Assembly (NCBI RefSeq): GCF_006345805.1
Contig: NC_043010.1
Location: forward strand, 59,582,001 to 59,646,000
DNA length: 64,000 nucleotides
Direction of reading: 5' to 3'
From: Octopus sinensis
Lineage: Eukaryota
The number at the start of each line of letters is the position of its first letter. Position 1 is the stretch's first letter. A program made the position numbers and the translations under genes. Below are positions 5,622 through 55,430 of this stretch, in pieces. The notes below the pieces were generated by a model that saw only the letters and a program-made list of their open reading frames with translations, was not told where the DNA came from and made no database searches.

Positions 5622-7979
5622 ATGTTGTTACACCTGTGTGTTCTACTAACTTTATTCCACTGTTATCTAAGTGAAGATATCACATACCATGTTGAAGAAG
5701 AGAATGGTCCCTATACATATATAGGGGACATTGCTACTGACTTACAGAAATCAGACAGCTCCTTCCTAAAGAATAAAGATTTAATTACATTTAGTCAACT
5801 GCAACAAAAGGGAGAACAGGTGTTCAATGTGACGAGAACAGGTAAACTGTACACTGTTGAGACATTGGATGCTGAGTCTGTGTGTAGTTATGAGAAAGAA
5901 TGTTTTGAAATCGTTAAAGTTGCTGTTCACAAATCCAAGACATTTATGAAGATCTTAAAGATTAAAGTCATAATAGAAGACATCAATGACCACCAACCTG
6001 AGTTTCCTCAGAAAGAAATCACTTTGCAGTTTGAGGAAGGAGATGGTAAAGGTATGAAAAAAGCCATACCTAATGCTGTTGATAAAGATGTTGGACATCA
6101 GAACAGGCTGATTAAATATAGATTAAAAGATGGTTTTGGTCATTTTTCTTTATCTCAATCAAAATTAGCTGATGAAATATCAACATTAGGAATAATTTTA
6201 CAAGATAAATTAGACAGAGAAACGAAAGACAGCTACAATATTGAAGTCATTGCTAAAGATGGGGGAACTCCACCAAAACAATCTGTTTTAAATGTTAAAA
6301 TATCTGTAGAAGATGAAAATGATAATGCACCACAATTTTCCCAAAGTATCTACAATGTCTCTATTGAACATAAACATAAGAAGAACATTCCAGTAGTCAC
6401 AGTATCTGCCAGTGATTTAGACATTGGCAGGAATGGTAAAATATCTTTCTATTTCAGTCAGAAAACTGATGTGAAGATGAGAAAATATTTTCACCTGAAT
6501 GAAAATACAGGAATGTTATATTTAGCTAAATCGATAGAATTTGGAAAAGAAGAGAATTTTAAATTATATGTGGAAGCCAGGGATAATGGTATTTCCCCTC
6601 TCAGTTCTCTGGCAATCATTCAAATAAATGTCATCAATGAACACAACAATCCTCCAAATATTGATGTGAACTTTATTTCTACACAGAATCACAACACAGC
6701 TACCATTCTGGAAGACATCAAAGTTGGTAGTTTCATTGCTTATGTGATGGTCACTGACAATGATGTTGGACACAATGGACAGGTGAACTGTCATATCAAA
6801 GACGACACATTCAAACTACAGTCAATGGAATCGAAGGAATATAAAATAGTTCTAAAGAAAGCAGTAGACAGAGAGACACAGGAACATTATCACTTTACTG
6901 TGTCGTGTGAAGATAAAGGATTACCTGCTCTGAAAACTGATAAAGATCTGTCAATCCAAGTGTTGGATGTGAATGATGTAGAACCACACTTTACGAAAGA
7001 CACATTCAAGTTCCTTACCTATGAGAATGACAAAGCTAATTTCCCTATTGGCTTTATCAATGCTACAGACCCAGATATTGGTAAGGGAGGTGAATTGTCT
7101 TATTCTCTGAGAAATAAACAGCAATATCGTCTGCCATTCCAGATTATCAACTCTGGCTTTATTTCAACAAACCAGTCTTTAGACAGAGAACACAGAGATT
7201 TCTATGAGTTTGAGGTTTTTGTGAAAGACAATGGAAGCCCATCTCTGAATAACACAGTGAATGTTGAAGTGGAAGTATTGGATAGAAATGATAATGCTCC
7301 ATATTTTACATTTCCTAGTGTTGACCCTTTCACTCTTAATGTCCACTATCATCCACAAAGTAAGAACGACATCACAGTTCTGAAAGCATCTGATATAGAC
7401 AGTCACATGAATGCTTTTCTCAGGTATGAAATCGTTTCAGGTAACGAGAGACAGTTATTTAAACTGGACTCTTTCACTGGTGTGTTATCTTACTCTCGCA
7501 CAGTTTACCAAAATGATGCCGGATCATATGAGCTTGAGTTTGTTGTGAAAGACAGTGGTACTCCAGTTCTGTCGGCAACAACTAGTGTGTCTTTGACACT
7601 GACTGTTAGTAACAAGACGTCACCAATGTTCACAGCTGTGCACCTACCAAGTGATAACACAATAGATGCTACATTGTTGATTATCATTGTAGTAGCAGCT
7701 GTGATAGTATCTATAGCTATTGTGGTTTCTATAACCCTGTGTATTGTGAGATGTAACAATGTGAGAAATAGCTCATCTGAAAGAACAGCAGAAGAGAAAC
7801 AGGCATACCAATGTCGCAATGAGATGAGACAGTTGATCTATCAAGGTAACAATAGTGTACCTGTGATGTCAGGTAATCGAGGAGAGATGTCGGACAGATA
7901 TGGTCATTCGAGGAGCCATTACTATCCTGAAGACTGGAAGACATCAACAATGAGCAGATCACTTCAAAAGTCTACAAAG
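5622..7979 (+). CDS. Protocadherin unit 1, exon 2 (SP, EC1-EC6, TM, proximal tail; 786 codons)
   Basis: Cadherin motifs DINDHQPEF, LDRE, AKDGG, DENDNAPQF, DVNDVEP, DRNDNAP; EC1 Cys-X5-Cys; hydrophobic TM; acceptor ttcag|5566; phase-0 donor AAG|gtaatc. Confidence 0.96.
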
Positions 7980-8319
7980 GTAATCTTTACTTGGATTTAC
8001 TATTTGTTAGTTGTTTATGTTTAATTAAGAAGTATATGACTGGAAGACATCAACAATGAACAGAACTTTACCAAAAAGCATGAAGGTGTGTGGTAATATT
8101 CTCTGTTGATAATCTTATAATTATTTACTGAATAGTGGTTTTAAATGTTAGTTATATTCTTAGTCTGTAAATTTTAGAGTTTGTTTCTTCATACTTAGTT
8201 TAAACCAATAACATCAATGATGATTGATATTATATATAATATATAATTCTTGGATTTCGTAAAATTTTATATTCTATTAAAATTGCAATGCGACATGAAA
8301 TAATTTGTTTCTCTAACAG

Positions 8320-8473
8320 CAGAAATACAGTCAACCCATTGAAGTAACATCTTATGGAGACAACAGACCATCTTCTCACTATCCCACTGACACATTGACC
8401 AGTCGTAAGAGTAGTGGACAGTGCTGGAGTGAGCGGTCAAGTAGACAGTATGAAGAAATACCAGCAATGTCAG
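8320..8473 (+). CDS. Protocadherin unit 1, exon 3 (cytoplasmic)
   Basis: aacag|CAG...TCAG|gtaaaa; QKYSQPIEVTSYGDNRPSSHYPTDTLTSRKSSGQCWSERSSRQYEEIPAMS; in frame with exons 2 and 4; conserved in six units. Confidence 0.92.
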
Positions 8474-8831: not shown

Positions 8832-8953
8832 GAATCTATGGTGGTGCCCCACCCGATGTATCAAGCACCAGTGAGAGAGACCATTACCAAGACAGATATG
8901 TGAAACCTCCAGAGAGACAGTTACCTTCAACACCAGATGTTGTTGTCAGTTAA
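8832..8953 (+). CDS. Protocadherin unit 1, exon 4 (C-terminus)
   Basis: tttcag acceptor, phase 1, ends PDVVVS-TAA. Confidence 0.92.
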
Positions 8954-9329
8954 GTGAGGCTGAGAAAGGAACACAACAGAAATAATATCACCTTCAACAT
9001 TCACACAACATTTAAAACAACAGAAATATATTAGCTAGACAATGATATTGCCCACATATTATGCTCATGTGTGTTTACAGCTTTATATATGAGAAAATCA
9101 GTTTAGAAAATCAGTTTATAGCCCCTTATTGTTAGGCAAAAAAAAGGTAAAGGAAATACTGTAAGAAATTATAAATACATATTTTTAAAATTGAATATAT
9201 GTTGTGAAATATAAAATAATTATATTACATCTAAATTCGATGTGCGACAACTATATTATATTTTAGAAAATAGTTTACATGGCATCTTTAAATTTTCCCT
9301 TTATATTCTACATAGGAAAAATTATTTCT

Positions 9330-9860
9330 AATTAGGTCAGGCATTCACTAACTATTATTGTCAATATTGTATTTACATTTTAAATTACACACACATTAAC
9401 AACATCAGCCATATTTTGTTAATATAACCTCTCTGTTCTAAGGATTTCTATGTCAGTCTCTCTCCACATCAGACATGTTGGTGTTATATAGACTTATCAT
9501 GGCTGACTGTTAGTGGAGCTGAAAATGCCTTTTCTCTTTCTGTCTCTCTATGTGAGAGGCAATACAACATGTCTGAGTGAGGGCAGACTAAGCATCATCC
9601 ATCCTACTCCCTCTCCCTTTCACACACACATACACAAACACACACACACGCATGTATATATACTCACACACACTAAACATCACTCCTCCACAGAGGAAGA
9701 CTGAGAGGGAACTGCTGGTTCCCACTGACTCACCACCAACACTATTCCATCAACATGAAGCCATTGTCACACCATAGCAGCAGTGACACAGACAACCATT
9801 AACAACAGAACATTGGGACCAAGTCACAGTTTATACAACAAAGGATTTTACACAATGAAG
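9330..9860 (+). promoter_or_regulatory. Conserved promoter and non-coding exon 1 of unit 2
   Basis: Same block as 2335-2830, ending ATGAAG|gtaagt. Confidence 0.8.
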
Positions 9861-15483: not shown

Positions 15484-17841
15484 ATGTTGTTACACCTGTG
15501 TGTTTTACTGACTTTCTTCCACTGTTATCTAAGTGAAGACATCACATACCATGTTGAAGAAGAGAATAGTCCCTATACCTATGTAGGGGACATTGCTACT
15601 GACCTACAGAAATCAGACAGCTCCTATTTAAAGAATAAGGATTTAATTACATTTAGTCAACTGCAACAAAAGGGAGAACAGTTGTTCAATGTGACGAGAA
15701 CAGGTAAACTGTACACTGTTGAGACATTGGATGCTGAGTCTGTGTGTAGTTATGAGAAAGAATGTTTTGAAATCGTTAAAGTTGCTGTTCACAAATCGAA
15801 GACATTTATGAAGATCTTAAAGATTAAAGTCATAATAGAAGACATCAATGACCACCAACCTGAGTTTCCAACTAAACAAGTCAACATTCAATTTTCAGAG
15901 AGAGATGGTAAAGGTTCAAAACTATCAATACCCAATGCTGTTGATAATGATATGGGTCATAAGAACAGCTTAGTAACATATGAATTAAAAAAGGATAATG
16001 GACAATTTTCTTTATCAGTTTCAAAACAAACAGATAAAATATCAACATTAGGAATTATTTTAGAAAACAAGTTAGACAGAGAAACAAAAGACAGTTACAA
16101 TATTGAAGTCATTGCTAAAGATGGGGGATCTCCACCAAAACAATCTATTTTAAATGTGAAAATATCTGTGGAAGATGAAAATGATAATCCACCGCAATTT
16201 TCTCAAAGTATCTACAATGTCTCTATTGAACATAAGCATAAAAAGAATGTTCCTGTAGTCACATTATCTGCCAGTGATTTAGATATTGGCAGGAATGGTA
16301 AAATATCTTTTTATTTTGCAAGGAAAACTGTAGGGAAAATGGAGAGGAACTTCAATTTAGATGAAAATACTGGGAAATTATATTTAGCTACATCTTCAAA
16401 AATTGATAAGGATGAGTCTTTTAAATTATACGTTGAAGCCAGAGATGATGGCAGTCCTCCTCTGAGTTCCATAGCAACGGTTATGGTAAATGTCATCAAC
16501 CAACACAACAATCCCCCAAATATTGATGTGAACTTTATTTCTACACAGAATCACAACACAGCCACCATTCTGGAAGACATCAAAGTTGGTAGTTTCATTG
16601 CTTATGTGATGGTCACTGACAACGATGTTGGACACAATGGAGAGGTGAACTGTCATATCAAAGATGACACATTCAAACTACAGTCAATGGGATCGAAGGA
16701 ATATAAAATAGTTCTAAAGAAAGCAGTAGACAGAGAGACACAGGAACATTATCACTTTACTGTGTCGTGTGAAGATAAAGGATTACCTGCTCTGAAAACT
16801 GATAAAGATCTGTCAATCCAAGTGTTGGATGTGAATGATGTAGAACCACACTTTACGAAAGACACATTCAAGTTCCTTACCTATGAGAATGACAAAGCTA
16901 ATTTCCCTATTGGCTTTATCAATGCTACAGACCCAGATATTGGTAAGGGAGGTGAATTGTCTTATTCTCTGAGAAATAAACAGCAATATCGTCTGCCATT
17001 CCAGATTATCAACTCTGGCTTTATTTCAACAAACCAGTCTTTAGACAGAGAACACAGAGATTTCTATGAGTTTGAGGTTTTTGTGAAAGACAATGGAAGC
17101 CCATCTCTGAATAACACAGTGAATGTTGAAGTGGAAGTATTGGATAGAAATGATAATGCTCCATATTTTACATTTCCTAGTGTTGACCCTTTCACTCTTA
17201 ATGTCCACTATCATCCGCAAAGTAAGAACGACATCACAGTTCTGAAAGCATCTGATATAGACAGTCACATGAATGCTTTTCTCAGGTATGAAATCGTTTC
17301 AGGTAACGAGAGACAGTTATTTAAACTGGACTCGTTCACTGGTGTGTTATCTTACTCTCGCACAGTTTACCAAAATGATGCCGGATCATATGAGCTTGAG
17401 TTTGTTGTGAAAGACAGTGGTACTCCAGTTCTGTCAGCAACAACTAGTGTGTCTTTGACACTGACTGTTAGTAACAAGACGTCACCAATGTTCACAGCTG
17501 TGCACCTACCAAGTGATAACACAATAGATGCGACATTGTTGATTATCATTGTAGTAGCAGCTGTGATAGTATCTATAGCTATTGTGGTTTCTATAACCCT
17601 GTGTATTGTGAGATGTAACAATGTGAGAAATAGCTCATCTGAAAGAACAGCAGAAGAGAAACAGGCATACCAATGTCGCAATGAGATGAGACAGTTGATC
17701 TATCAAGGTAACAACAGTGTACCTGTGATGTCAGGTAATCGAGGAGAGATGTCAGATAGATACGGTCATTCGAGGAGCCATTACTATCCTGAAGACTGGA
17801 AGACATCAACAATGAGCAGAAGTTTACCAAAAAGTATGAAG
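15484..17841 (+). CDS. Protocadherin unit 2, exon 2
   Basis: Same architecture as unit 1; acceptor ttcag|15434; in-frame upstream ATG at 15463 also possible; donor AAG|gtatgt. Confidence 0.96.
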
Positions 17842-18075
17842 GTATGTTTTAAGATTCTCTGTTGATAATTCTTTAATTATTTACTGAATAATAATAAATG
17901 TTATTTATAGTCTTCATCTGTAACTTGTTAGTTTGCTTCTTTCTTCATATTTATTTTAGTTCCGTAACATGAATGACGATTCTTATTTTAGAATGCATAC
18001 ATTTTATAAAATCTTTAATGTAATATATTTTGTTAAAATTACAATAAATGTTGGAACAAATTTTTTCTCTAACAG

Positions 18076-18229
18076 CAGAAATACAGTCAACCGATTGAGG
18101 TGACATCTTATGGAGACAACAGACCATCTTCTCACTATCCCACTGACACATTGACCAGTCGTAAGAGCAGTGGACAGTGCTGGAGTGAGCGGTCAAGCAG
18201 ACAGTATGAAGAGATACCAGCAATGTCAG
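18076..18229 (+). CDS. Protocadherin unit 2, exon 3
   Basis: 154-nt conserved exon with ag/gt boundaries. Confidence 0.92.
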
Positions 18230-18568
18230 GTAAAACAATTTTATTTATCCCTCTTAATTGGTGTGTTTATTATTTATCCCATTGATATATCTGGGAGTGA
18301 AGTCTAAACAAACACTAGGATTTTGAGGACTTCGAAAATGTTATTTCTAATAGTTTTATCACTATGAAATAAATTTATAAATTAAAAGTGTAAATCTATT
18401 TTTATTTATTAGTTAATTGTCACGTAATATGCTCAAGATTGTATAGGTCTAATTGTATAGTGAGGTATTAATCCCTTTAAAATAGTTATTTTGTAGAGCA
18501 CTTAATATAAAAGAAGGAACTGTTGACTAAAGTCAATCGTTGAATACCCATTGATATATATGTTTCAG

Positions 18569-18690
18569 GAATCTATGGTGGTGCCCCACCCGATGTATCA
18601 AGCAGCAGTGAAAGAGACCATTACCAAGACAGATATGTGAAACCTCCAGAGAGACAGTTACCTTCAACACCAGATGTTGTTGTCAGTTAA
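18569..18690 (+). CDS. Protocadherin unit 2, exon 4
   Basis: tttcag|GAATCTATGGT...GTCAGTTAA. Confidence 0.92.
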
Positions 18691-22520: not shown

Positions 22521-24878
22521 ATGTTGCTGTTTCTCTGTGTTTTATTGACTTTCTTCCACTGTTATCTAAGTGAAGATATCACATACCATGTTAAAGAAGA
22601 GAATATTCCTCATACCTATGTAGGGGACATAGCTACTGACCTACAAAAATCAGACAGCTCCTTCCTAAAGAATAAGGATTTAATTACATTTAGTCAACTG
22701 CAACAAAAGGGAGAACAGTTGTTCAATGTGACGAGAACAGGTAAACTGTACACTGTTGAGACATTGGATGCTGAGTCTGTGTGTAGTTATGAGAAAGAAT
22801 GTTTTGAAATCGTTAAAGTTGCAGTTCACAAATCCAAGACATTTATGAAGATCTTAAAGATTAAAGTCATCATAGAAGACATCAATGACCACCAACCTGA
22901 GTTTTCTGAGAAAGAAATCACGCTATACTTTGGTGAAGGTGATGGTAGAGGTATGAAGAAAACCATTCCTAATGCCATCGACAAAGATAACAGTTATGAG
23001 AACAGCATTATTAAATATGAACTACAAGACATTGATGGACATTTCTCTCTATCAGCTTTCAAGCGTGCAGATGGCATATCATCATTAGAAATTATTTTAG
23101 AAAAGAAATTAGACAGAGAAAAGAAAGACAGTTACAATATTGAAGTCATTGCTAAAGATGGGGGATCTCCCCCAAAACAATCTGTTTTAAATGTTAAAAT
23201 ATCTGTAAAAGACGAAAATGACAACAGACCACAGTTTTCTCAAAGTATCTACAATGTCTCTATTGAACATAAACATAAGAAGAACATTCCAGTAGTCACA
23301 GTATCTGCCAATGACTTAGACATTGGCAGGAATGGTAAAATATCTTTCTATTTCAGTCCGAAGACTGATATGCAAATGAAACAGTACTTTAATATTGATG
23401 AAAACTCTGGGAAAATATTCTTAATAAAATCTTTAGAGGTTGACACCAAAAATTCTTTAAAATTATACATTGAAGCTAAAGATAATGGAATTCCTCCTCT
23501 CAGTTCCATAGCAACCGTTATGGTAAATGTCATCAACCAACACAACAATCCCCCAAATATTGATGTGAACTTTATTTCTACACAGAATCACAACACAGCT
23601 ACCATTCTGGAAGACATCAAAGTTGGTAGTTTCATTGCTTATGTGATGGTCACTGACAATGATGTTGGACACAATGGAGAGGTGAACTGTCATATCAAAG
23701 ATGACACATTCAAACTACAGTCAATGGGATCGAAGGAATATAAAATAGTTCTAAAGAAAGCAGTAGACAGAGAGACACAGGAACATTATCACTTTACTGT
23801 GTCGTGTGAAGATAAAGGATTACCTGCTCTGAAAACTGATAAAGATCTGTCAATCCAAGTGTTGGATGTGAATGATGTAGAACCACACTTTACGAAAGAC
23901 ACATTCAAGTTCCTTACCTATGAGAATGACAAAGCTAATTTCCCTATTGGCTTTATCAATGCTACAGACCCAGATATTGGTAAGGGAGGTGAATTGTCTT
24001 ATTCTCTGAGAAATAAACAGCAATATCGTCTGCCATTCCAGATTATCAACTCTGGCTTTATTTCAACAAACCAGTCTTTAGACAGAGAACACAGAGATTT
24101 CTATGAGTTTGAGGTTTTTGTGAAAGACAATGGAAGCCCATCTCTGAATAACACAGTGAATGTTGAAGTGGAAGTATTGGATAGAAATGATAATGCTCCA
24201 TATTTTACATTTCCTAGTGTTGACCCTTTCACTCTTAATGTCCACTATCATCCGCAAAGTAAGAACGACATCACAGTTCTGAAAGCATCTGATATAGACA
24301 GTCACATGAATGCTTTTCTCAGGTACGAAATCGTTTCAGGTAACGAGAGACAGTTATTTAAACTGGACTCATTCACTGGTGTGTTATCTTACTCTCGCAC
24401 AGTTTACCAAAATGATGCCGGATCATATGAGCTTGAGTTTGTTGTGAAAGACAGTGGTACTCCAGTTCTGTCAGCAACAACTAGTGTGTCTTTGACACTG
24501 ACTGTTAGTAACAAGACGTCACCAATGTTCACAGCTGTGCACCTACCAAGTGATAACACAATAGATGCGACATTGTTGATTATCATTGTAGTAGCAGCTG
24601 TGATAGTATCTATAGCTATTGTGGTTTCTATAACCCTGTGTATTGTGAGATGTAACAATGTGAGAAATAGCTCATCTGAAAGAACAGCAGAAGAGAAACA
24701 GGCATACCAATGTCGCAATGAGATGAGACAGTTGATCTATCAAGGTAACAACAGTGTACCTGTGATGTCAGGTAATCGAGGAGAGATGTCAGACAGATAT
24801 GGTCATTCGAGGAGCCATTACTATCCTGAAGACTGGAAGACATCAACAATGAGCAGATCTCTTCAAAAGTCTACAAAG
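22521..24878 (+). CDS. Protocadherin unit 3, exon 2
   Basis: Six cadherin repeats plus TM; acceptor ttcag|22479; donor AAG|gtaagc. Confidence 0.96.
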
Positions 24879-26299
24879 GTAAGCTTCATTATTGATATTT
24901 TCATAAATATCCACCTAATTACACTTTTATATATTCTTTTAATTACAGTTTTCATAATTACATTTTCAAATGTTATTTACATATTCTTTATCCAACAATG
25001 CTTGTATAATGTTTAAAATACTTTATTTTCAACTTTAGTATATATGTGATAATGCATTTTTAGAATTTTATTGCTATGTAAGTTTAGTTAAGAGATTGTT
25101 ATTCCTAATATTTTATGTTGCTCATCTACACCAATGAATGGTATGTTTGTGTTTTGTGGTTGACTAACTACATTCAGCATTTGAATAAAGATGGTGGCAT
25201 ATAAATACACTAGTTTTTTTTTTTGTTTCTTGTTAATGGTTTGATCTGGAGGTCAGAGGTCAGTGTTGTGTCCATGACCTTTACAGGAACTCCATTACAA
25301 TTTAGTTTAGTGAAGTGTTAGTCCAAGCTGATGACTGATGGAAAAGCACGGGTTGGGACAAAAATGAAAGGGGAACTGTGTTTTGTAACAGAAGAAGTGG
25401 ATAAATGGTTACTGTAGGCCCATGAAAACCGACTGTATGAATAAGTAGAGCAGTCAGAATGAGTGAGAAGGTTGGTCTGAAGTAGAAGTGATACAAAAAT
25501 GTTGAGTTCTGAGACAGTGTGTCCATTATAGTAAAAGTAGAAAAGGCAGAGTGAAGAGCTGCAGAACAATGCTGGTGATGTCCGGAACATGTTTGTCCTG
25601 CTTATATCAGCTGCAGCCATTTACTGGCTGTGCTAGAAATAGAAGTTTGAATGCTGATATATGAAAAGATCAGATGATCACAGAAGACAATACTTTACCA
25701 TATTTCACCGTATTTCATTGACCTCTGTTTGTCAGAATATACCACATGGTCCCCAGCAATACAGAGATATGGATTTGTAGATCATGACTATTTCATTCTT
25801 TTTCAGATGTAGTATTTCAAGGACTACTTCCTATTTTTAGACTATAGGAAATGTTTTTTAAGGGAGCTATTTATTGTAGGCTGAGTGCTCAACTAGTGGG
25901 CCCCCTCATTTGTTTGTCTCTCTTGGAAGCTGTTTTTAAAACTCTCCAAGTTACCACAAATATTGGACCTTTCATTCTTTAATTTCCAATGGCAGCTTCA
26001 CATTGATAGCATTGCCAGACCTGCATTGACCCTCTGTAAAGCTTCAATGTGACCAACATTGGAGTACTGTTACGTCCCACACAAACATCCTAGATCATTG
26101 TACTTCATTTTTCATTTATGTTAAATTGTTAATACTTCACTGTGGTATCTTTTATTGATAATAGGTAATTATGTTAATTATTTCTTCTCTTTACTTGAGA
26201 TGTAATTTTAATTATCCAGCATTCCTTAACTCACCACCTTCAGTATTTCAACCTAACTTCAAGAATTTTTAAAGAAGTTTTTTGTAGTGATCAGTGAAT

Positions 26300-26515
26300 A
26301 TTCTTTTCTACTTTAGGCACAAGGCCCTAAATTTTGTGGGGAGGGGGCCAGTCAATTAGATCAATCCCAGTACACAACTGGTACTTAATTTTTCGACCCC
26401 AAAAGGATGAAAGGCAAAGTCGACCGTGACAGAATTTGAACTCAGAATGTAAAGTCTGACAAAATACTGCTAAGCATTTTGCCCGATGTGCTGACGATTC
26501 TGCCAGCTCACTGCC
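26300..26515 (-). mobile_element. SINE family A copy
   Basis: 'cgaccccaaaaggatgaaaggcaaagtcgac...gaatttgaactcag...gattctgccagct' is the reverse complement of 20-215. Confidence 0.8.
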
Positions 26516-26821
26516 TTGTGATCTGTGGCTATTAATTCAGCAATGCACTACAACTTCTTCATTACAGATGTATTATTTCTTTCTTTTTTGGTTACTAAAC
26601 ACCATGAACTCTTTCTATGAATAACTTGCTGAAAACTCACTCCATTGTGATCCACACAAGAAATCCCCTTTTACTTAGTCCCAAACTGTAACTATGGTCT
26701 CATCATCTTTATCTGACCCTAACCACATACCCTAACCGTTACACCCCAGTAAGCATCCAGAATTCCCAAATGTTTTTCTTAAACAAATCAAGTCGTTTTT
26801 GTTTTTTGTTTTCTCTAACAG

Positions 26822-26975
26822 CAGAAATACAGTCAACCGATTGAGGTGACATCTTATGGAGACAACAGACCATCTTCTCACTATCCCACCGACACATTGA
26901 CCAGTCGTAAGAGCAGTGGACAGTGCTGGAGTGAGCGGTCAAGCAGACAGTATGAAGAAATACCAGCAATGTCAG
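26822..26975 (+). CDS. Protocadherin unit 3, exon 3
   Basis: 154-nt conserved exon with ag/gt boundaries. Confidence 0.92.
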
Positions 26976-27314
26976 GTAAAACAATTGCATTTATCCCTCT
27001 TAATTGGTGTGTTTATCATTTATCCCATTGATATATCTGGGAGTGAAGTCTAAACAAACACCAGGATTTTGAGGACTTCCAAAATGTTATTTCTAATAGT
27101 TTTATCACTATGAATTAAATTTATAAATTAAAAGTGTAAATCTATTTTTATTTATTAGTTAATTGTCACGTAATATGCTCAAGATTGTATAGGTCTAATC
27201 GTATAGTGAGGTATTGATCCCATTATAATAGTTATTTTGTAGAGCACTTAATATAAAAGAAGGAACTGTTGACTAAAGTCAGTCAGTGAATATCCATTGA
27301 TATATATGTTTCAG

Positions 27315-27436
27315 GAATCTATGGTGGTGCCCCACCCGATGTATCAAGCACCAGTGAGAGAGACCATTACCAAGACAGATATGTGAAACCTCCAGAGAGA
27401 CAGTTACCTTCAACACCAGATGTTGTTGTCAGTTAA
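27315..27436 (+). CDS. Protocadherin unit 3, exon 4
   Basis: Conserved last exon ending VVVS*. Confidence 0.92.
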
Positions 27437-34432: not shown

Positions 34433-35787
34433 GTATGTGTCTATAATTACTATATTCATATTTTTTATTCTATTAAATATCATAGTTTTTATAAGTATAT
34501 ATATATATATTTTTATAATGATTTTACTTAACATTATGTCAGTAATTGTTATAGAAAAGGTATATAACTTATTTTAAATGCCAGAAACATGTTATCATGC
34601 TCTAGTGAATTATGAAACGATTGAAGTTCACTGCCAGATCTTGTCTCTTAATTATAAGTTCTGTTACTTAGCTACACCTCTCTCCTTTGATAATGCTTAG
34701 TATTGAGCAACTTTACACATTACTTTTCTGTCTTTTTTATTATTGGCAAATACATGCATTATAATCATTGACCAAACTACATTGCACATTTAAACATCAT
34801 ACTACAATAGATATAACTGCACAGTTGTTTTTGTTGTACTGGCTTCACTTGAAGGTAGCTGCTGTGTCCATGTTCTTCACAGGTATTCTCTTACAAATGG
34901 TGTCAATGCAGTGTATTTTCTTGAGCAATAGCAAATTGATGACACCAGGAAATACTTGGATAGGGATAGTTCCATGGGGAAAGATGTCTTGAAGAATTGG
35001 ATACAGTGGTTGGAGTAGAGCCCAGGAAGGCAGACAATATGAATGACTTGGGGAGGAGAGATGAATTTGGTGAACAATGCTTGAGGTAGCACAAGACTAA
35101 CCAGCTTTTTAAAGCTGAGGACAGGATCGGATGAGACCACATAAAAGTGGTTGTTGTTGGAAGTGATGGTAGGTAGTTTATTGATATACAGAAGGAAGTG
35201 TATGTAGGAAGTGCATCAAAATTGAGAGTGTTTCTCAGAATTCAACTCCCTCGATTTATGCTGTGATGGTGCAATTTGACAAGGAGTTTCATATCCAAGA
35301 CATGAAAGATAGATGGAAGTAGTTTTGCTTGAAAATTTGCACACCACACATAGTCAAATTCTTAGCTAATGTCAAGTGCGACCTTTCTCCAAATTATTCA
35401 AGGGTAAGGACTTACCTGCAGAGCAGATCTCCAGTAGTGGCTTTATGGAAACTACATTTATAGGGTAGAGAGAGGTGTTGCAGATTGTGGTTGTTTGTGA
35501 TTGTCTCCATCTTTTGTTGAGATGCTGAAAGTTCTAGTTGGTCAGTATATGGGTGGTAGGTTGTGTGAAACATGATCAAATATAAAGGAAATTGACACAA
35601 ATATTTGTTATGCATAAGTGTTGTTGCATATTTGAAGCAATAATTTTTAAGAATGTCAAAATATTCCAGACAAAACTTGAAAATCATTATCAAAGAATAG
35701 ATATAAGGTTATTGGTAAGATTAGTTCAGTTGTGAAATTTACAATATGGCATGAAATAAGTTTTGTGTGTGTTTTTTTATATAACAG

Positions 35788-35941
35788 CAGAAATACAGTC
35801 AACCAATTGAGGTGACATCTTATGGAGACAACAGACCATCTTCTCACTATCCCACCGACACATTGACCAGTCGTAAGAGCAGTGGACAGTGCTGGAGTGA
35901 GCGGTCAAGCAGACAGTATGAAGAAATACCAGCAATGTCAG
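35788..35941 (+). CDS. Protocadherin unit 4, exon 3
   Basis: 154-nt conserved exon with ag/gt boundaries. Confidence 0.92.
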
Positions 35942-38021
35942 GTAAAACAATGTTGTTCATTAACAATTGTTACTAATTCTTTTATAATGATTTAATGATA
36001 AAATGTTTGATTTCAACAACACAGACTTCAGCTTTCATTATTTCTATAAATATTCTTCTATGAATGACTTTTATAAGTTAAATGTTATCTTATGTGTCTA
36101 CACTGGTATAATGTTTTATAGTGTCTGCTTCACATGTATACATCACACTGAGATGTATCACTGTTCTAGAAATCATTTGTATAGAAGAGAATATCATTTG
36201 TGTGGTAGAGGGTATCATCTTTTATAGTGTGTGTATAAGACACACACAAGTCTCTCTGTGTCATCTAAACAGGTTTTGAGAAATGTATTTCACAGAATTA
36301 TAAATTAAAAGAAATTGGTCTTGACCTGTCAATGTGACATTTTCGTAAACATATGTCAAGATGCTAGTTTGCCTATATTATATTGCCGTTGCTTGACAAA
36401 ACTCATGTGAAATATCATTATGTAATTGTGACTGTGTATTTTAGAATTATCTTTCTCAAACATTGACAAAATATTTGCATGTTGCTTCACTATGTACATT
36501 TCATAAAGTTCTATATTGCCAGGATGGATGTGGCATTATGAATCCTTTTAGGGTTGTAAAGTTCTCATTCAGACTCAGTACATTTGAAATTTGTGAGATA
36601 TGTGCTTATGGGTAAAATAGAACTTAGTTTTACTGAAGTTGAACATTCTTATATCCAAAGATTATTAAGAAGAGAGAAAGAGAGAGACAGACAGACAGAC
36701 AGAGGCTGAGAGAAAGTGAGTGAGAGAGAGAGAAGAAAGAAATCAAGAATGTCTTTAGAAAAATATATCTTGTCAAAATAGCAGCCACTTTTCCCTCAAA
36801 TCACAGCCTGTCTTAAAAGTGGGAGGATACATCAGATAATGTAGTAAAGACATGAATTTATATAAATATATTCATCTATGTATTGATGTTATATAGTGTG
36901 TTGCTCTACTTAAATGATAGCCGTCTAATCATCTATTTAACAAAGTATCACATTTCTCGCCATTGATTGATATATGTTAATGAGTATAATAGAATCTTGG
37001 ATTTTAGTCAAGAAGGAAAGTAACCATTCAATTTTTCCCCTCTATTTATTTCAACAAGACCTTGGAAGAAATCAAAAATACTGAATAGAGCTATACATAC
37101 GTGCTAACAATATGCACTTAGTATATTTTGGTTTTAATAATGTTCATCATCATTGTCATCATCATCATTTATCATCCATGTTCCATGTTAGCAAGGGTTG
37201 AATGGTTCGACAAGGATCTGAGGAGTCAAAGGATTGCACCAAGCTCTGTTGTCTGCTTTGGCCTGATTTTTATGGCTGGATGTCCTTCCTAACACTAACA
37301 TTCTACAATGTGTATTGGATGCATTTTTTCATGCCACCACCACTATTGAGGGTATCATCTAACTCACAAGGCAGAAGATCTAGGGAGGGAGGATGTTGCT
37401 TCCATATGAGAGACGGTGGTTGAGGTGTGAGGGAAGAGGTTGGGATAGAACGAGATTTTGTTGTAGAGGAGCTACATTTAGGAGAGAGAGAGAGAGAGAG
37501 AGAATAGAGGAGACAGATGGTGGTGATGAGGTGACCAGGTGGCACCTCAGGTAGCTGGAGCAGTAGTGAGTGGGGGAATGGGGGTTTGCAAGAATGAATG
37601 GGAAAAGACATAGGGAAGGTGAGAAAGACAGACAGACAGACAATATCTGGAAAGAATGGAGAAAAGGTTGGGCAAGAAGGGTGCAGAATTTGAGAAGGCT
37701 GCAGGGCTACAGGAATGCTGGCAGTAGGTTAGTAATGATGCTGATGACAGGTGGGAGAAGAGAGATGATGTGTTGGGTAGATTGCAGGAGCAGAGTAGAG
37801 AGATTAAACCAAGGTAATGCATGAGGAGAGATTATTTGGTGGTCTGGAGAGGCGGGGATGGCCACTGAAACATTTGGTGTTGGAGAACAATTTAAATTAC
37901 TAATGGATGAAGAATGGCTAACAAGTGGGGTGATTCTGGGTAACATGAGAGAAAAGTGGGTTTGGGATGGGGGAAAGAGCTGTAGTACATGATATGGTGT
38001 GTGTGTGTGTGGGGTGGGGGA

Positions 38022-38054
<33 letters not shown>

Positions 38055-38315
38055 CGTGCGTGCATGCACGTACACATTTTTATTTTCAATAAGTGAACAA
38101 CTGGCTTATCTCCTTCAAGATATTTAATCAATGGATCACTGATCTGTTGAGAATTGGAAAGGATCTTAGGGATGCTCAAATGAAACCTTTTCTGATTATT
38201 TCACATCTTAATCCAGTGAATGTTTTGGATTGGAAATTTCTTATTGATGTCATTAAATACCTATTTATTATATAAACTGTGTGATAAATGTAGTTGGTAT
38301 ATGTGTGTGTTTCAG

Positions 38316-38437
38316 GAATCTATGGTGGTGCCCCACCCGATGTGTCAAGCACCAGTGAGAGAGACCATTACCAAGACAGATATGTGAAACCTCCAGAGAG
38401 ACAGTTACCTTCAACACCAGATGTTGTTGTCAGTTAA
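38316..38437 (+). CDS. Protocadherin unit 4, exon 4
   Basis: Conserved last exon ending VVVS*. Confidence 0.92.
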
Positions 38438-41492: not shown

Positions 41493-43847
41493 ATGTTGCT
41501 ATTCCTATGCATTTTACTGACTTTTTTCCACTGTTATTTAAGTGAAGACATCACATACCATGTTGAAGAAGAGAATGGTCCTTATACATATATAGGGGAC
41601 ATTGCTGCTGACTTGCAGAAATCAGACAGCTCCTTCTTAAAGAATAAGGATTTAATTACATTTAGTCAACTGCAACAAAAGGGAGAACAGTTGTTCAATG
41701 TGACGAGAACAGGTAAACTGTACACTGTTGAGACATTGGATGCTGAGTCTGTGTGTAGTTATGAGAAAGAATGTTTTGAAATCGTTAAAGTTGCTGTTCA
41801 CAAATCCAAGACATTTATGAAGATCTTAAAGATTAAAGTCATAATAGAAGACATCAATGACCACCAACCTGAGTTTCCTGAGAAAGAAATTACTCTACAT
41901 TTTCGGGAAAGTGATGGCAAAGGTATGAAGAAGGCTATACCCAGTGCTATTGACAAAGATGTTGGATATCAGAACAGTTTTATTGAATATGTACTACATG
42001 GTGATGGACATTTTTCTTTATCCCAGTCAAAATTAACTGATGAAATATCAATATTAGAAATTATTTTAAATGAGAAATTAGACAGAGAAAAGAAAAACAG
42101 TTACAATATTGAAGTCATTGCTAAAGATGGGGGAACTCCACCAAAACAATCTGTTTTAAATGTTAAAATATCTGTGGAAGATGAAAATGACAATAGGCCA
42201 CAATTTTCTCAACATATTTACAATGTCTCTATAGAACATAAACATAAAAAGAATATTCCAGTAGTCACATTATCTGCCACTGATTTAGATATTGGCAGGA
42301 ATGGTAAAATATCTTTCTACTTCAGTCAAAAAACTGATGTGAAGATGAGAAAATATTTTCTTTTGAACGAAACTACAGGAATGTTATATTTAGTTAAATC
42401 ATTAGAATTTGGAAAAGAAGAGGAGTTTAAATTATATGTGGAAGCCAGGGATAATGGCATTTCCCCTTTAAGTTCTCTGGCAATCATTCAAATAAATGTC
42501 ATCAATGAACACAACAATCCCCCAAATATTGATGTGAACTTTATTTCTTCACAGAATCACAACACAGCAACCATTCTGGAAGACATCAAAGTTGGTAGTT
42601 TCATTGCTTATGTGATGGTCACTGACAATGATGTTGGACACAATGGAGAGGTGAACTGTCATATCAAAGACGACACATTCAAACTACAGTCAATGGGATC
42701 GAAGGAATATAAAATAGTTCTAAAGAAAGCAGTAGACAGAGAGACACAGGAACATTATCACTTTACTGTGTCGTGTGAAGATAAAGGATTACCTGCTCTG
42801 AAAACTGATAAAGATCTGTCGATCCAAGTGTTGGATGTGAATGATGTAGAACCACACTTTACGAAAGACACATTCAAGTTCCTTACCTATGAGAATGACA
42901 AAGCTAATTTCCCTATTGGCTTTATCAATGCTACAGACCCAGATATTGGTAAGGGAGGTGAATTGTCTTATTCTCTGAGAAATAAACAGCAATATCGTCT
43001 GCCATTCCAGATTATCAACTCTGGCTTTATTTCAACAAACCAGTCTTTAGACAGAGAACACAGAGATTTCTATGAGTTTGAGGTTTTTGTGAAAGACAAT
43101 GGAAGCCCATCTCTGAATAACACAGTGAATGTTGAAGTGGAAGTATTGGATAGAAATGATAATGCTCCATATTTTACATTTCCTAGTGTTGACCCTTTCA
43201 CTCTTAATGTCCACTATCATCCGCAAAGTAAGAACGACATCACAGTTCTGAAAGCATCTGATATAGACAGTCACATGAATGCTTTTCTCAGGTATGAAAT
43301 CGTTTCAGGTAACGAGAGACAGTTATTTAAACTGGATTCGTTCACTGGTGTGTTATCTTACTCTCGCACAGTTTACCAAAATGATGCCGGATCATATGAG
43401 CTTGAGTTTGTTGTGAAAGACAGTGGTACTCCAGTTCTGTCAGCAACAACTAGTGTGTCTTTGACACTGACTGTTAGTAACAAGACGTCACCAATGTTCA
43501 CAGCTGTGCACCTACCAAGTGATAACACAATAGATGCAACATTGTTGATTATCATTGTAGTAGCAGCTGTGATAGTATCTATAGCTATTGTGGTTTCTAT
43601 AACCCTGTGTATTGTGAGATGTAACAATGTGAGAAATAGCTCATCCGAAAGAACAGCAGAAGAGAAACAGGCATACCAATGTCGCAATGAGATGAGACAG
43701 TTGATCTATCAAGGTAACAACAGTGTACCTGTGATGTCAGGTAATCGAGGAGAGATGTCAGACAGATATGGTCATTCGAGGAGCCATTACTATCCAGATG
43801 ACTGGAAGATGTCAACAATGAGCAGAAGTCTTCAAAAGTCCACCAAG
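41493..43847 (+). CDS. Protocadherin unit 5, exon 2 (785 codons; one-residue deletion in EC2)
   Basis: Acceptor ttcag|41433; six cadherin repeats plus TM; donor AAG|gtaacc. Confidence 0.96.
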
Positions 43848-44851
43848 GTAACCAATACTTCACTTAACAACCTGTTAGTAGTTGATGTGTAATTATAAAT
43901 ACTTAACTATAACATGCTGTGTTTTGTAGTTTTTATTCTCTTTGTCAACTTAAGTTTTTTGTTTATTTTCTAAATATATTAAACGTAACATATTCATAGC
44001 TGAGAGATGACCATTTTGGTTTGGTGAAGAGAAATATGTTTGTGCTTAGTTTAATACTTTTTTTATTAATGTTGTTATGGAATGTTTTAAGTAATTAATC
44101 TTTCATACCTTCATGTATATTAAGTAAATACAATCATTAGATTTAAAAAAAACAAACATTGATTTGCTTGAACCCAATCTATCTTGGATCTGTTGGCTTG
44201 AATATGGAATGGTGTAATGTGAGTTAATGCTGATAATGTTTCACTGAATTTAAGACATTGTGTTTGTATGTGTCAGAGTGAGTGTGAGAGAGAGAGAGAG
44301 AGAGAGAGATGTTGCATTGATCTCTAAACTTGTTCATGCAAATCCTTATCTGACTTCTGTATATTAACCCGTTTGTTACCATATTTGGGTTTAAAAACAT
44401 TACTTATGTTTCACTTAAGTTTAAAATAATGAAGTGTTTATAAAGTAACGTAGTGATTAAGCTGGTGCTTGGAATATAAAGCAACATGAAATTTTGATGG
44501 GTGACTTCTATTTTGACCACTCTAAAGCAGAAAGTTTTTTTTATCACAGAACTAGGCACAGTTAGAAGCCAGTTGGTATGAAAATTGTTTAGCAGTATTT
44601 TAATGTATTTTAGTGTTTTATTGAATATATTCATTTTTTTCTAACAGAAATGATGTACCATTTCTCTAACAACTAAATTTCTTAACTTTTAGTAATTTGT
44701 CTATTTTAATTTGGAACAATTAAAAAATTTCAATCAAACTGTCATATGTATGAGTATATATTTTAAATTTTACTAATTTAATCAATATTGTAACATTTAA
44801 GCAACTATCTTTTACCATTGTAGTATATCCTGTTACTATCATATTTTACAG

Positions 44852-45005
44852 CAGAAATACAGTCAACCGATTGAGGTGACATCTTATGGAGACAACAGAC
44901 CATCTTCTAACTATCCCACTGACACATTGACCAGTCGTAAGAGCAGTGGACAGTGCTGGAGTGAGCGGTCAAGTAGACAGTATGAAGAAATACCAGCAAT
45001 GTCAG
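44852..45005 (+). CDS. Protocadherin unit 5, exon 3
   Basis: 154-nt conserved exon (H to N change in SSHYP). Confidence 0.92.
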
Positions 45006-46604
45006 GTAAAACAATCTCGTCCATTCATGATTCGTACTTCTTTCATTACAATAATTTAAATTTCAGATATTAAAAAAAAATTATTTTATTAAAATTTTAA
45101 GTAAATTTTTAATGAATTATATTTATAGTATGTAACTACATTATGTAGTATAGTATATTATAGCTTCTATGTCTGCAGAATTATATTTCCCATTCTAGCA
45201 TATTATCCTGCAGGAAACATCTAGAACCTTGTAATATCTTGTAATACTCAAAAGTCATAAAATAATAATTGCAAATATAAACAACATACTTATCAAATTT
45301 GCCCATTCCTACCCAAAATATTTAGAGCATCTTGATTAAGTTGTGTTGTTACATGAAAGAAATTGCCATCAACATTATACTATGTCATTGTCTTAAACAT
45401 ATACCATTTGCTAGTTTCTTGATAATCTGTCCAAACATATTTGTGAATACAATTTACAAAATGTTAAGTATCTCCAAGTTATTGTCAAGTATGCTACAGA
45501 AATAACTCCATAAACACTGAAAACTATTTTCATAAATTAACATTTTATATATTTCATAAAATAATATTTGATTTGATTGAACTTAGCATTAGGTAGGCCG
45601 CAATACATATCCAACACCATCTATTTCTCTTCTCTATGATAATTTCTCTATTTTCCTCTCTAATTCTTTTTAACCTCCCTTCTCCTTCCTTGTTTTGCTG
45701 GGGTATCTCCTCAATACTAAGACATCTATATATCCCTCTATTATACTCTAATCTCTCACCTGTTACACAAACACCTCCCTTGGTTCGCCCCCCTCCCCTC
45801 TCTCAACTAAGAGGTCTTCGCTTTACAAGTTACGTGGCAACCATGCTGGTGCTGGTAACATGCAAAAAGCACCTGTGGTCATGTCATATAAAAAGGACCC
45901 AGTACACTCTGTAGAGTGGTTAGTGTTAGGAAGGGCATCCAGCTGTAGAGATTATGCCAAAACTAGCAATTGAGGTCTAACGCAGCTCTCTGGCTCGCTG
46001 GCCCCTCTCAAACTGTCCAACCCATGCAAACATTGAAAACAGACTTTGGAGGAGGAGGAGGAGGAAGGGGGATGATGGTGGTGGTGATGGTGTAGTTACG
46101 AATGGGTGAATATTTTGAATATTTCTGTAATGGGATCCTTGTAAGAGTGAAAATGTATATTTATTGTTTATATTTACCCTATACTTTGTAACTTAGCCCT
46201 TGTCATGTATCTCCTTCAGTGTCAAATACATATCTACTCACCTTGTCAAGTTCTTAATTTCATATATTTTAACCTGGTCCATTGTTTTCACCATCAAAAC
46301 CTTGTTCTCATTATGTACATTTAGTTGTTCATTACAATATACAAGTAATTGTGGTGTTATTTCTAATGTCTTTAAAATCGATGGAGCAGAGAGCAGTATA
46401 AAATTGATCAGTAATAGAACATTATATATTGTGTGCATGCAATTAAAACACTGAACTGACTTATATTTTATCCATTCTAACTCTGCATATGGTCATCAGA
46501 TCACTGATCTACTTACAATGTCTAAGATTCTTAAGATTAGTAGATAACTTTTGACTATGGGAACAGTGTGATAAATTTATCTTATATACATGTGTGTGTT
46601 TCAG

Positions 46605-46726
46605 GAATCTATGGTGGTGCCCCACCCGATGTATCAAGCACCAGTGAGAGAGACCATTACCAAGACAGATATGTGAAACCTCCTGAGAGACAGTTACCTT
46701 CAACACCAGATGTTGTTGTCAGTTAA
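46605..46726 (+). CDS. Protocadherin unit 5, exon 4
   Basis: Conserved last exon ending VVVS*. Confidence 0.92.

Positions 46727-48715: not shown

Positions 48716-48760
<45 letters not shown>
48503..48760 (+). mobile_element. SINE family A copy with (ATT)n tail
   Basis: Head, core 'ctttgcctttcatcctttcagggtcgataaattaagtacc' and ATT tail; flanked by ATT repeats on both sides. Confidence 0.85.
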
Positions 48761-51700: not shown

Positions 51701-53072
51701 TGTTGATATATTTTGTGTTGAAGATTTGAAAATTCCAGTTGATTTCCTACTACGTGTCTCTACTGAAGGAATTCTCAGTAATAAGTAAAACCCATAAAAG
51801 AAAGAAACCCAAAACACATCAGCTTTGCAAGCTGGAAGTACCAAAGAGAGGTGCTTTTAGGAAATATGATAATACTACTACAAAAGCAACCAAGTCATTA
51901 AATCTGCTGGCCCTTGTTAGTTGATTGATATAAGACTAGATTCTTCATGACATTCTAAAATATTCTATTTTAATCTGTTATTCTTTCAGGAAATAATATC
52001 TTTTTAAATAAAATATATAAAAAAAAATGTGAGCATACATATTCTTTCTGTTATCAAGTATAGGGGCTCTCTTTAAGTTTCTCTATATTTGGGATCTGTA
52101 TCAAAAAGGGTTGGAGACTATTGCCATATGTAATATTATTGTGGAGTAATTAAACTTAGACCTTGATAGTAACACTTGTTTCCCAACTTGTATTGCATAA
52201 TTTGGTAGCCGTTTCTTTACAGTGCATTTTTAATTATTACATTCTTAAATGTATATAATGAATTTTTCGCATTTTCCTGGGAATTATCATGGTTACTAAT
52301 AGTGGATTAATGTTTTTATTTATGACAAAATTTATTTGTCTTATTCGAAGTAATTGTAATTAGGATACTGGTGAGTTGAGTAGTAAGCTGATATTTATAA
52401 TGTAGGACCGTAATAATATATTTCAGATGAATATAATCTAAATTGGTGTCATTGACATTGGCAAGCATTCAAATGTTACAGTTAATTTGAAATTATTGCA
52501 GAAAGTACCACTTGCTGGCTTAATATAGTATTAATGTAGAAAAATCACACTTGCTGTAACAATTGATTTTAAATCAAACGTGTTCAGACATTGTCTTTGT
52601 CTCATAGCTAAGACCTACTTCCTAACACTTGCCACACAAATTATATAGCCGTAAGGAAGACCTGTTTTATTTCAAAAATTATGGCCAATAAATTGCTTAT
52701 TCTTCTACAATACACAAAACATTAAAATTTTTATTTATACAATTCCTAATAATATTTGTCTATAAAAGCAAGATAGGATTTTAATACGTCAAATGACTGT
52801 GAGGATCCATCTGAGTAAGAGAGGAATCAAAGAGGTCCATAGGTAAAAAAATCATTGAGAAACACTGGTCCCGATGATATTTGAGGATTCAGCAATCAAC
52901 ACTACAAAATGTAATTAGTTTCTTAAATAGAATTCAAAATGAGTCAAAATAATAATTAATCTCAGTGATACCTCTGGAAACTTTTATTCATTACAATATA
53001 TATATTTTTTTGCAGATTGAATATCTAAAACCATCATTTCCCTGGATACTTTAATAGCCCCCAAGACCAGAG

Positions 53073-55430
53073 ATGTTGTTACACCTGTGTGTTCTACTAA
53101 CTTTATTCCACTGTTATCTAAGTGAAGATATCACATACCATGTTGAAGAAGAGAATGGTCCTTATACATATATAGGGGACATTGCTGCTGACTTACAGCA
53201 ATCAGACAGCTCCTTCTTAAAGAATAAGGATTTAATAACATTTAGTCAACTGCAACAAAAGGGAGAACAGTTGTTCAATGTGACGAGAACAGGTAAACTG
53301 TACACTGTTGAGACATTGGATGCTGAGTCTGTGTGTAGTTATGAGAAAGAATGTTTTGAAATCGTTAAAGTTGCTGTTCACAAATCCAAGACATTTATGA
53401 AGATCTTAAAGATTAAAGTCATAATAGAAGACATCAATGACCACCAACCTGAGTTTCCAACTAAACAAGTCAACATTCAGTTTTCAGAGAGAGATGGTAA
53501 AGGAGCAAAACTATCAATACCCAATGCCATGGATAAAGATATAAGTTATCAAAACAGCTTAATTAATTATGAATTAAAAAATGATAGGGAACATTTCTCA
53601 CTATTAGTCTCTAAAAGAGCAGATGGAATATCTACGTTAGGAATTATTTTAGAAAAGAAATTAGACAGAGAAACGAAAGACAGTTACGATATTGAAGTCA
53701 TTGCTAAAGATGGGGGAACTCCACCAAAACAATCCATTTTAAATGTGAAAATATCTGTAGAAGACGAAAATGATAATCCACCACAATTTTCCCAAAGTAT
53801 CTACAATGTCTCTATTGAACATAAACATAAAAAGATTATTCCAGTAGTCACATTATCTGCCAGTGATTTAGACATTGGCAGGAATGGTAAAATATCTTTC
53901 TATTTCAGTCCGAAGACTGATATGCAAATGAAACAGTATTTTAATATTGATGAAAACTCTGGGAAAATATTCTTAATAAAATCTTTAGCGGTTGACACCA
54001 AAAATTCTTTAAAATTATATATTGAAGCTAAAGATAATGGAATTCCTCCTTTGAGTTCCATAGCAACTGTTATGGTAAATGTCATCAACCAACACAACAA
54101 TCCCCCAAATATTGATGTGAACTTTATTTCTACACAGAATCATAACACAGCTACCATTCTGGAAGACATCAAAGTTGGTAGTTTCATTGCTTATGTGATG
54201 GTCACTGACAATGATGTTGGACACAATGGAGAGGTGAACTGTCATATCAAAGATGACACATTCAAACTACAGTCAATGGGATCGAAGGAATATAAAATAG
54301 TTCTAAAGAAAGCAGTAGACAGAGAGACACAGGAACATTATCACTTTACTGTGTCGTGTGAAGATAAAGGATTACCTGCTCTGAAAACTGATAAAGATCT
54401 GTCAATCCAAGTGTTGGATGTGAATGATGTAGAACCACACTTTACGAAAGACACATTCAAGTTCCTTACCTATGAGAATGACAAAGCTAATTTCCCTATT
54501 GGCTTTATCAATGCTACAGACCCAGATATTGGTAAGGGAGGTGAATTGTCTTATTCTCTGAGAAATAAACAGCAATATCGTCTGCCATTCCAGATTATCA
54601 ACTCTGGCTTTATTTCAACAAACCAGTCTTTAGACAGAGAACACAGAGATTTCTATGAGTTTGAGGTTTTTGTGAAAGACAATGGAAGCCCATCTCTGAA
54701 TAACACAGTGAATGTTGAAGTGGAAGTATTGGATAGAAATGATAATGCTCCATATTTTACATTTCCTAGTGTTGACCATTTCACTCTTAATGTCCACTAT
54801 CATCCGCAAAGTAAGAACGACATCACAGTTCTGAAAGCATCTGATATAGACAGTCACATGAATGCTTTTCTCAGGTATGAAATCGTTTCAGGTAACGAGA
54901 GACAGCTATTTAAACTGGACTCGTTCACTGGTGTGTTATCTTACTCTCGCACAGTTTACCAAAATGATGCCGGATCATATGAGCTTGAGTTTGTTGTGAA
55001 AGACAGTGGTACTCCAGTTCTGTCAGCAACAACTAGTGTGTCTTTGACACTGACTGTTAGTAACAAGACATCACCAATGTTCACAGCTGTGCACCTACCA
55101 AGTGATAACACAATAGATGCGACATTGTTGATTATCATTGTAGTAGCAGCTGTGATAGTATCTATAGCTATTGTGGTTTCTATAACCCTGTGTATTGTGA
55201 GATGTAACAATGTGAGAAATAGCTCATCTGAAAGAACAGCAGAAGAGAAACAGGTATACCAATGTCGCAATGAGATGAGACAGTTGATCTATCAAGGTAA
55301 CAACAGTGTACCTGTGATGTCAGGTAATCGAGGAGAGATGTCAGACAGATACAGTCATTCGAGGAGCCATTACTATCCTGAAGACTGGAAGACGTCGACA
55401 ATGAGCAGATCTCTTCAAAAGTCTACAAAG
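53073..55430 (+). CDS. Protocadherin unit 6, exon 2
   Basis: Acceptor tgcag|53016; six cadherin repeats plus TM; donor AAG|gtaagc. Confidence 0.96.

Follow-up and report, generated by a model that had tools for sequence, protein, structure and literature searches.

The closest described systems for the locus analysed here are the clustered protocadherins of vertebrates and of coleoid cephalopods (papers are cited, here and below, from parts of their text). In vertebrates EC2 and EC3 (extracellular cadherin, EC, repeats 2 and 3) escape gene conversion, and these most divergent domains set binding choice (PMC4978886, PMC5001838, PMC5106212). Among the mouse alpha protocadherins, identity amounts to 96% in EC1, 69% in EC2, 59% in EC3, 85% in EC4 and 98% in EC5 (PMC4978886 Table 1). 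Coleoid arrays have been published, and gene conversion has already been suggested for them (PMC9068888, PMC6339937). The described sub-arrays (Albertin 2022 PMC9068888; Jiang 2022 PMC9795677; Styfhals 2019 PMC6339937) consist of multi-exon genes duplicated whole, head to tail, on a single chromosome, with tens of close genes and without shared spliced constant exons. The locus studied here is of the same kind. It occupies a window of 64,000 nucleotides of Octopus sinensis (NC_043010.1, positions 59,582,001 to 59,646,000, forward strand) and addresses the question of whether cephalopod protocadherins serve neuronal self/non-self identity, as in vertebrates. The coleoid papers, in the parts available, treat whole genes; added here are the divergence of single domains, a mosaic structure, trans-genus EC2-EC3 variants, the EC3-EC4 linker and an upstream element. 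A literature search with partial coverage turned up no cephalopod study that analyses single domains or linkers, and parts of this may already be described.

The window contains six intact main exons of 786-787 codons, arranged head to tail on the + strand with ATGs at 5622, 15484, 22521, 32075, 41493 and 53073. Matches to PF08266 and PF00028 identify a protocadherin-type EC1 plus cadherin repeats. As in coleoid clustered protocadherins, six EC repeats and a transmembrane segment (TM) lie inside one large exon, and whole genes form a head-to-tail tandem array with 3′ exons private to each gene. A monomer model of EC1-4 shows four beta-sandwich repeats (predicted local distance difference test, pLDDT, 85.8). 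The closest named relatives over EC1-4, among the top matches, come from Octopus (82-87%) and Argonauta (A. hians, 75-83%). The survey covered 890 kb around the window plus 110 kb of a third array (array C). Array A, to which the window belongs, spans about 360 kb and comprises 33 intact plus 7 interrupted units, with 41 exon-2 and 41 exon-3 matches. The intact genes fall into A1, the subfamily of the window genes (24), A2 (five) and four divergent singletons. Array B has 21 and array C 7 long open reading frames (ORFs), and between A1 and array B the constant parts share only about 70% identity. The counts leave out frame-interrupted genes, a truncated array-C ORF and, for the synonymous divergence (dS), a gene at the edge of array B.

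Divergence along the exon and probable gene conversion

The DxNDN linkers were used as domain borders. Across the 15 pairs formed by the six window genes, 4-15 of 333 nucleotides differ in EC1, 73-157 of 657 in EC2-EC3 and 4-9 of 951 in EC4-6. The corresponding dS values are 0.10 (EC1), 0.55 (EC2), 0.54 (EC3), 0.03 (EC4), 0.00 (EC5) and 0.04 (EC6). Both measures agree with an earlier sequence-only reading of this DNA, which had described a near-identical EC1 core and EC4-onward region around a divergent EC2-EC3 and had named a uniform dS along the exon as a test; dS is not uniform. In unit 1, divergence sets in at 6006, directly after DINDHQPEF, and ends near 6641-6650, where that reading had placed its borders (6006 and ~6645). 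Some of its wording needs correction. EC1 is constant in its core, but the signal peptide (dS 0.77) and the EC1 N-terminus are variable. Constancy from EC4 onwards holds, but the stop codon does not lie in the main exon, which ends at a GT donor and is followed by two exons. Introns described as unalignable mostly are, but some pairs share sequence, for example units 2 and 3 in intron 2. The profile extends beyond the window: in A1 (24 genes) and array B (20 genes), dS is 0.52-0.60 in EC2/EC3 versus 0.002-0.08 in EC4-6. No comparable EC2-3 dip was seen in 29 dispersed genes (0.47-0.53 over EC1-4).

Gene conversion restricted to particular domains very probably shapes this array, as the sequence-only reading had proposed. 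The best tree for EC4-6 separates 33 Octopus rows from 23 Argonauta rows as one species clade (99.9), and for EC2-3 the approximately unbiased (AU) test rejected the species clade on the same rows (p=1.5e-5). The comparison with an orthologous array that had been suggested as a check bears this out: 17 Argonauta A1-like proteins, picked by identity out of 45 aligned Argonauta matches, show the same profile (identity 0.71 in EC2, 0.69 in EC3 and 0.98-0.99 in EC4-6). Between Octopus and Argonauta the EC4-6 identity is 0.95, the Argonauta consensus being its own and 5% away. EC3 types are common to both genera, and three divergent Octopus singletons have Argonauta partners in EC1-3 (0.70-0.84) and Octopus neighbours in EC4-6. 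Thus, the array and many EC2-3 variants are older than the Octopus-Argonauta split, and everything outside EC2-3 was homogenised after it; the literature search found no date for this split. The expansion burst has been dated to 8-14 Ma from whole-gene distances (PMC9795677), for a beta cluster that is possibly not array A. Since conversion would shrink such distances (Jukes-Cantor distance 0.068 for the whole exon versus 0.215 for EC2-3), whole-gene distances understate the age of the array.

Read depth points in the same direction. In a DNA-like sequencing run, single contigs reached a depth of 1944-2206 in EC4-6 and 1237 in EC1, compared with 42-60 in introns; this corresponds to roughly 35-50 copies of EC4-6 and 21-29 of EC1, in a run that is possibly the assembly's own source. 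Exons 2 and 3 are mostly 94-100% identical across the array, and at exons 1 and 2 identity falls off within 10-20 bases of their splice sites. The 154-nt exon 2 and a 175-nt upstream element have been homogenised within unalignable flanks, so that even short targets appear to be convertible. How similar two genes are did not depend on how far apart they lie in the array (rho 0.00-0.22). GC-biased conversion was considered, given a GC content at third codon positions (GC3) of 0.20-0.31 in EC2-3 and 0.34-0.46 in EC4-6 (A1, B and C), and was dropped because four-fold sites were inconsistent. A practical consequence of the homogenisation is that short reads outside EC2-EC3 are not assignable to a single gene.

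Variation within EC2-EC3 is concentrated in two diversity islands (amino acids 129-200 and 278-340, pi 0.21-0.29), which flank a calmer valley (pi 0.06-0.10) spanning EC2 F-G and EC3 A-C. In gene 1 (+ strand), island 1 covers EC2 strands A-E at 6006..6221, and island 2 extends from the EC3 C-D loop to strand G at 6453..6641. A recombination test of the pairwise homoplasy index (PHI) type gave p<=0.001. The five-block combinations were distinct in 24/24 A1 genes by an ad hoc clustering with our own thresholds, and the EC2 B-C to E blocks remain linked to EC3. With its two islands, EC2-EC3 forms a mosaic put together by recombination, a structure that is new here. As many as 24 proteins, distinguished almost solely by EC2-EC3 and carrying natural block swaps, provide natural controls for a recognition code.

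The EC3-EC4 junction and the upstream element

The linkers between repeats were compared in 144 coleoid sequences, 64 from the Octopus sinensis genome and 80 homologues picked by similarity. At the EC3-EC4 junction the motifs xE, DRE and the N3/D4 positions of DxNDN occur in 0/144 sequences, compared with 133-144/144 at the other four junctions; this loss across all aligned sequences is new here. The linker reads N[EQ]HNN instead (NEHNN at 6636..6650 in gene 1, + strand). Canonical three-calcium linkers are thus not present at all EC1-4 junctions, and from its sequence the EC3-EC4 junction is predicted to be calcium-deficient across the expanded coleoid family. The DxD motif on the EC4 side is retained in 144/144 sequences, which may leave one calcium in place. 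The same motif loss is seen in 28 of 32 dispersed protocadherins, the other four being canonical; one bivalve protein is intermediate. A search of representative sequences with EC3-4 brought up mainly long Fat-like cadherins and gave no date for the loss of the linker motifs. In vertebrate structures of the clustered and delta-2 types each junction carries calcium (PMC5106212, PMC5115871), and the family-wide loss predicts that one should not take the vertebrate dimer for granted. Replacement of xE, DRE and DxNDN at one junction is also known from PCDH15 EC9-10 and Drosophila N-cadherin EC2-3 (PMC5120219). In the calcium-free PCDH15 EC9-10, however, DxD is gone too, whereas Octopus EC4 keeps it and the junction may be only partly calcium-free. 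Unlike these cases, the Octopus junction sits inside the presumed adhesive EC1-4 region.

The sequence-only reading had further proposed a fixed EC1:EC4 scaffold. This applies to the 24 genes of A1, but not to the array as a whole: when all 33 intact genes are compared, EC1 identity ranges from 47 to 100% while EC4 stays at 95-100%. Since one EC4 type occurs with EC1 types this different, only A1 can be said to have the fixed scaffold. In array B, too, EC1 F-G and EC4 strand A vary.

A block of about 175 bases, each copy followed by a donor-like site, occurs in 41 copies that average 98.6% identity; 32 of the 33 intact array-A genes have one such copy within 7 kb on their 5′ side. An acceptor lies about 45-65 bases 5′ of each of the six window ATGs. 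The block is likely to represent a leader exon with promoter, which is new here; in gene 1 the element, likely a non-coding leader exon, lies at 2656..2830 (+) and ends in a GTAAGT donor. None was seen in the single array-B unit queried. In vertebrate clusters promoters are chosen stochastically, via one conserved element for each gene; the array-A block is at most a candidate for such a part. Between each stop and the donor of the next element, about 700 bases of non-coding sequence are conserved (window 9270-10010 and equivalents, 80-92% between units). This stretch contains TGACTCA, which we take to be an AP-1-like site.

Explanations for the variable EC2-EC3 region

We favour, with moderate confidence, an explanation in which a frame homogenised by conversion carries retained and reshuffled EC2-EC3 variants that set partner choice. 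Within a species, gene conversion would hold the leader, most of EC1 and all that runs from EC4 through the stop in a near-identical state, and EC2-EC3 would retain ancient variants whose blocks are reshuffled by recombination. Selection may remove conversions that would erase EC2-EC3 identity, which would maintain old variants and not drive fast amino-acid change. By analogy with vertebrates, binding would be homophilic, with an antiparallel arrangement centred on the EC2-3 linker; a calcium-poor EC3-EC4 hinge may loosen the EC1:EC4 contact, leaving EC2:EC3 dominant. Near-identical leaders could let neurons draw isoform combinations; in O. vulgaris, about 21 PCDH are expressed in each neuron (PMC9712504).

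That EC2-EC3 blocks act as a recognition code for homophilic partner choice is, on the vertebrate analogy, slightly favoured. Vertebrate interface segments were mapped by alignment (PMC5115871), using two segment sets and five groups. The EC2 segments whose variability is most consistent across all 5 groups are strand A and the A-B loop, and both lie in or beside the vertebrate interface (PMC5115871, PMC5106212). Within the 24-gene subfamily, omega is raised in EC2/EC3 (0.26-0.30) relative to EC1 and EC4-6 (0.06-0.14). For array B, the sole correlate of the EC1 F-G block is the EC4 A block (rho 0.32, Mantel p<=0.01; 19/20 genes), a contact named for vertebrates (PMC5001838). The covariation evidence as a whole is mixed. 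Among thousands of pairs scanned, charges at pair 190-236 were opposed (r -0.72) and again so in Argonauta (-0.70), and pair 190-327 in array B gave p=0.005.

Several results weigh against the favoured explanation. Entropy was significantly enriched at the mapped interface in 1/5 groups with one segment set and in 0/5 with the other. Charge-opposed distant pairs showed no excess (15 vs 11; 15 vs 16). The EC1:EC4 association of array B did not reach significance in Argonauta (p about 0.3), and the genes are non-independent. Within A1 the EC2 A-B block shows no correlation with the EC3 blocks (rho 0.02-0.05), contrary to a strict lock-and-key co-evolution. The EC3-EC4 junction is unlike that of the vertebrate structures used for comparison. 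In array C the contrast between domains is weak (dS 0.11 in EC1, 0.21 in EC2, 0.13 in EC3 and 0.11 in EC4). Our literature search found no binding data for cephalopod protocadherins. Finally, omega in EC2/EC3 is 0.26-0.32. Own implementations of a FUBAR-like grid and of an omega-mixture test on seven block trees (kappa 1.5-4) gave no class with omega>1 in A1 or B (twice the log-likelihood difference, 2dL, 0.0 and 0.43), with a best-fit top class of 0.75. Six of seven simulations with planted positive sites (3-10% at omega 2-3) gave 2dL>14. At the segments that correspond to the vertebrate interface, site omega was no higher than elsewhere (p=0.34, 0.99). Diversifying selection in the sense of dN>dS, part of the sequence-only reading, therefore finds no support despite this power; the EC2-3 data fit preservation of old variants, not driven change.

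Part of this evidence would also suit an escape from conversion without any code, in which conversion reinforces itself by homogenising the most constrained parts, and EC2-EC3 drifted past an identity threshold and then came under relaxed purifying selection, the isoforms being redundant or promiscuous. Omega below 1 everywhere, the lack of a robust interface enrichment and the independent shuffling of the EC2 A-B block speak for it, as do non-interface loops (EC2 C-D, EC3 E-F) that are among the most variable segments and a conservation in dispersed genes that rises mildly towards EC6. It remains, in our judgement, unlikely: the islands have the same position in separate arrays and in two genera, EC3 types are trans-genus, very short exons in divergent flanks were still converted, and in vertebrates the same escape of EC2/EC3 goes with demonstrated binding specificity (PMC4978886). 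More improbable is a code with another geometry, in which a bent or flexible calcium-free EC3-EC4 hinge leaves EC1-EC3 or EC2-EC3 as the binding unit, with possible heterophilic pairs and EC4 as a stalk. The motif loss at this junction alone among the five, the pairing of a single EC4 type with strongly different EC1 types and the bends of 80-90 degrees at calcium-free linkers of PCDH15 and Drosophila N-cadherin (PMC5120219) are consistent with such a geometry, but the retained EC4 DxD, which may still hold one calcium and is missing in PCDH15 EC9-10, and the co-variation of EC1 F-G with EC4 A in array B are not.

The pattern might also reflect assembly collapse or polishing cross-talk, or recent duplication under strong purifying selection, for example on RNA-editing structures. 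Interrupted frames in seven array units hint at assembly errors, and candidate A-to-I sites occur in EC5 and TM. These readings are largely refuted and very improbable: each gene has private differences in EC4-6 (4-9/951), which together with the multi-copy read depth, rough as it is, argue against collapse, and the independent Argonauta assembly repeats the pattern. As its consensus is 5% away, purifying selection alone is insufficient. Beyond the favoured explanation of a homogenised frame with retained variants, it is doubtful whether the locus amounts to a second neuronal barcode, with a leader, stalk and tail made constant by conversion, shuffled EC2-EC3 alleles, a calcium-free hinge that would uncouple EC4, recognition via EC1-EC3 and a dimer unlike those of solved protocadherins.

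Gene models and comparison with known systems

The main coding exon of gene 1 (5622..7979, +) encodes the signal peptide, EC1-EC6, TM and the start of the tail and terminates at a GT splice donor, as does that of gene 6 at 55430. It is followed by the gene's own copies of exon 2 (8320..8473, CAGCAG acceptor) and exon 3 (8832..8953), which includes the true stop. RNA-like contigs splice the main exon to exons 2 and 3 at GT..AG, with introns uncovered. The other genes, all on the + strand, are gene 2 at 15484..18690 (exons 15484-17841, 18076-18229 and 18569-18690; EC2-3 about 15868-16524; element 9688-9860), gene 3 at 22521..27436 (exons 22521-24878, 26822-26975 and 27315-27436; EC2-3 about 22905-23561; element 19460-19632), gene 4 at 32075..38437 (exons 32075-34432, 35788-35941 and 38316-38437; EC2-3 about 32459-33115; element 28216-28390), gene 5 at 41493..46726 (exons 41493-43847, 44852-45005 and 46605-46726; EC2-3 about 41877-42530; element 39195-39368) and gene 6 at 53073..59569 (exons 53073-55430, 56309-56462 and 59448-59569; EC2-3 about 53457-54113; element 47551-47724). 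The upstream element at 60446..60620 (+) belongs to the next array gene, which lies past the window end.

The CAGCAG at exon 2 is a tandem acceptor (window 8317-8322 and equivalents), and database proteins differ there by one Gln. RNA-like contigs show A>G at window 7056, 7083, 7084 and 7683, which the DNA-like run does not, and the A is invariant in 33/33 array genes; candidate A-to-I recoding would give I479V, K488 (E/R/G) and I688V in EC5 and TM. Only the change at 7056 was found in the RNA-like run from the same organism as the DNA-like run. ORF fragments at 58311-58703 (-), in the last intron of gene 6, and at 63596-64000 (+) are presumably Tc1/mariner- and hAT-type transposase-like. The seven interrupted units (L014-L020, L037-L043; G000:C14 59.52-59.57 and 59.81-59.87 Mb) are either pseudogenes or carry long-read indel errors. 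Elsewhere, L109 and L131 (C14 58.77 and 58.69 Mb) are 90-98% alike in EC3-EC4 and 68-76% in other parts, which suggests a local conversion tract of opposite polarity. On a separate scaffold (G000:C12464), the protocadherins L124 and L125 are 99-100% identical and lie 92 kb from each other; unlike those of the expanded clade, their EC3-4 linkers are canonical.

Vertebrate clustered protocadherins likewise have six EC repeats and TM in one large exon, and in the Octopus array as in vertebrates EC2-EC3 escape gene conversion. The expansions are independent, and a real convergent evolutionary pattern in a known gene family is well supported. Homogenisation is more extreme in the Octopus array (EC5 dS 0.002), and the adaptive diversification (dN>dS) at interface sites of the vertebrate proteins was not found there. 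Whereas the vertebrate alpha and gamma genes splice to shared constant exons, the Octopus genes use their own converted exons 2 and 3; conversion would in this way build a shared constant region of the kind that splicing provides in those vertebrate clusters.

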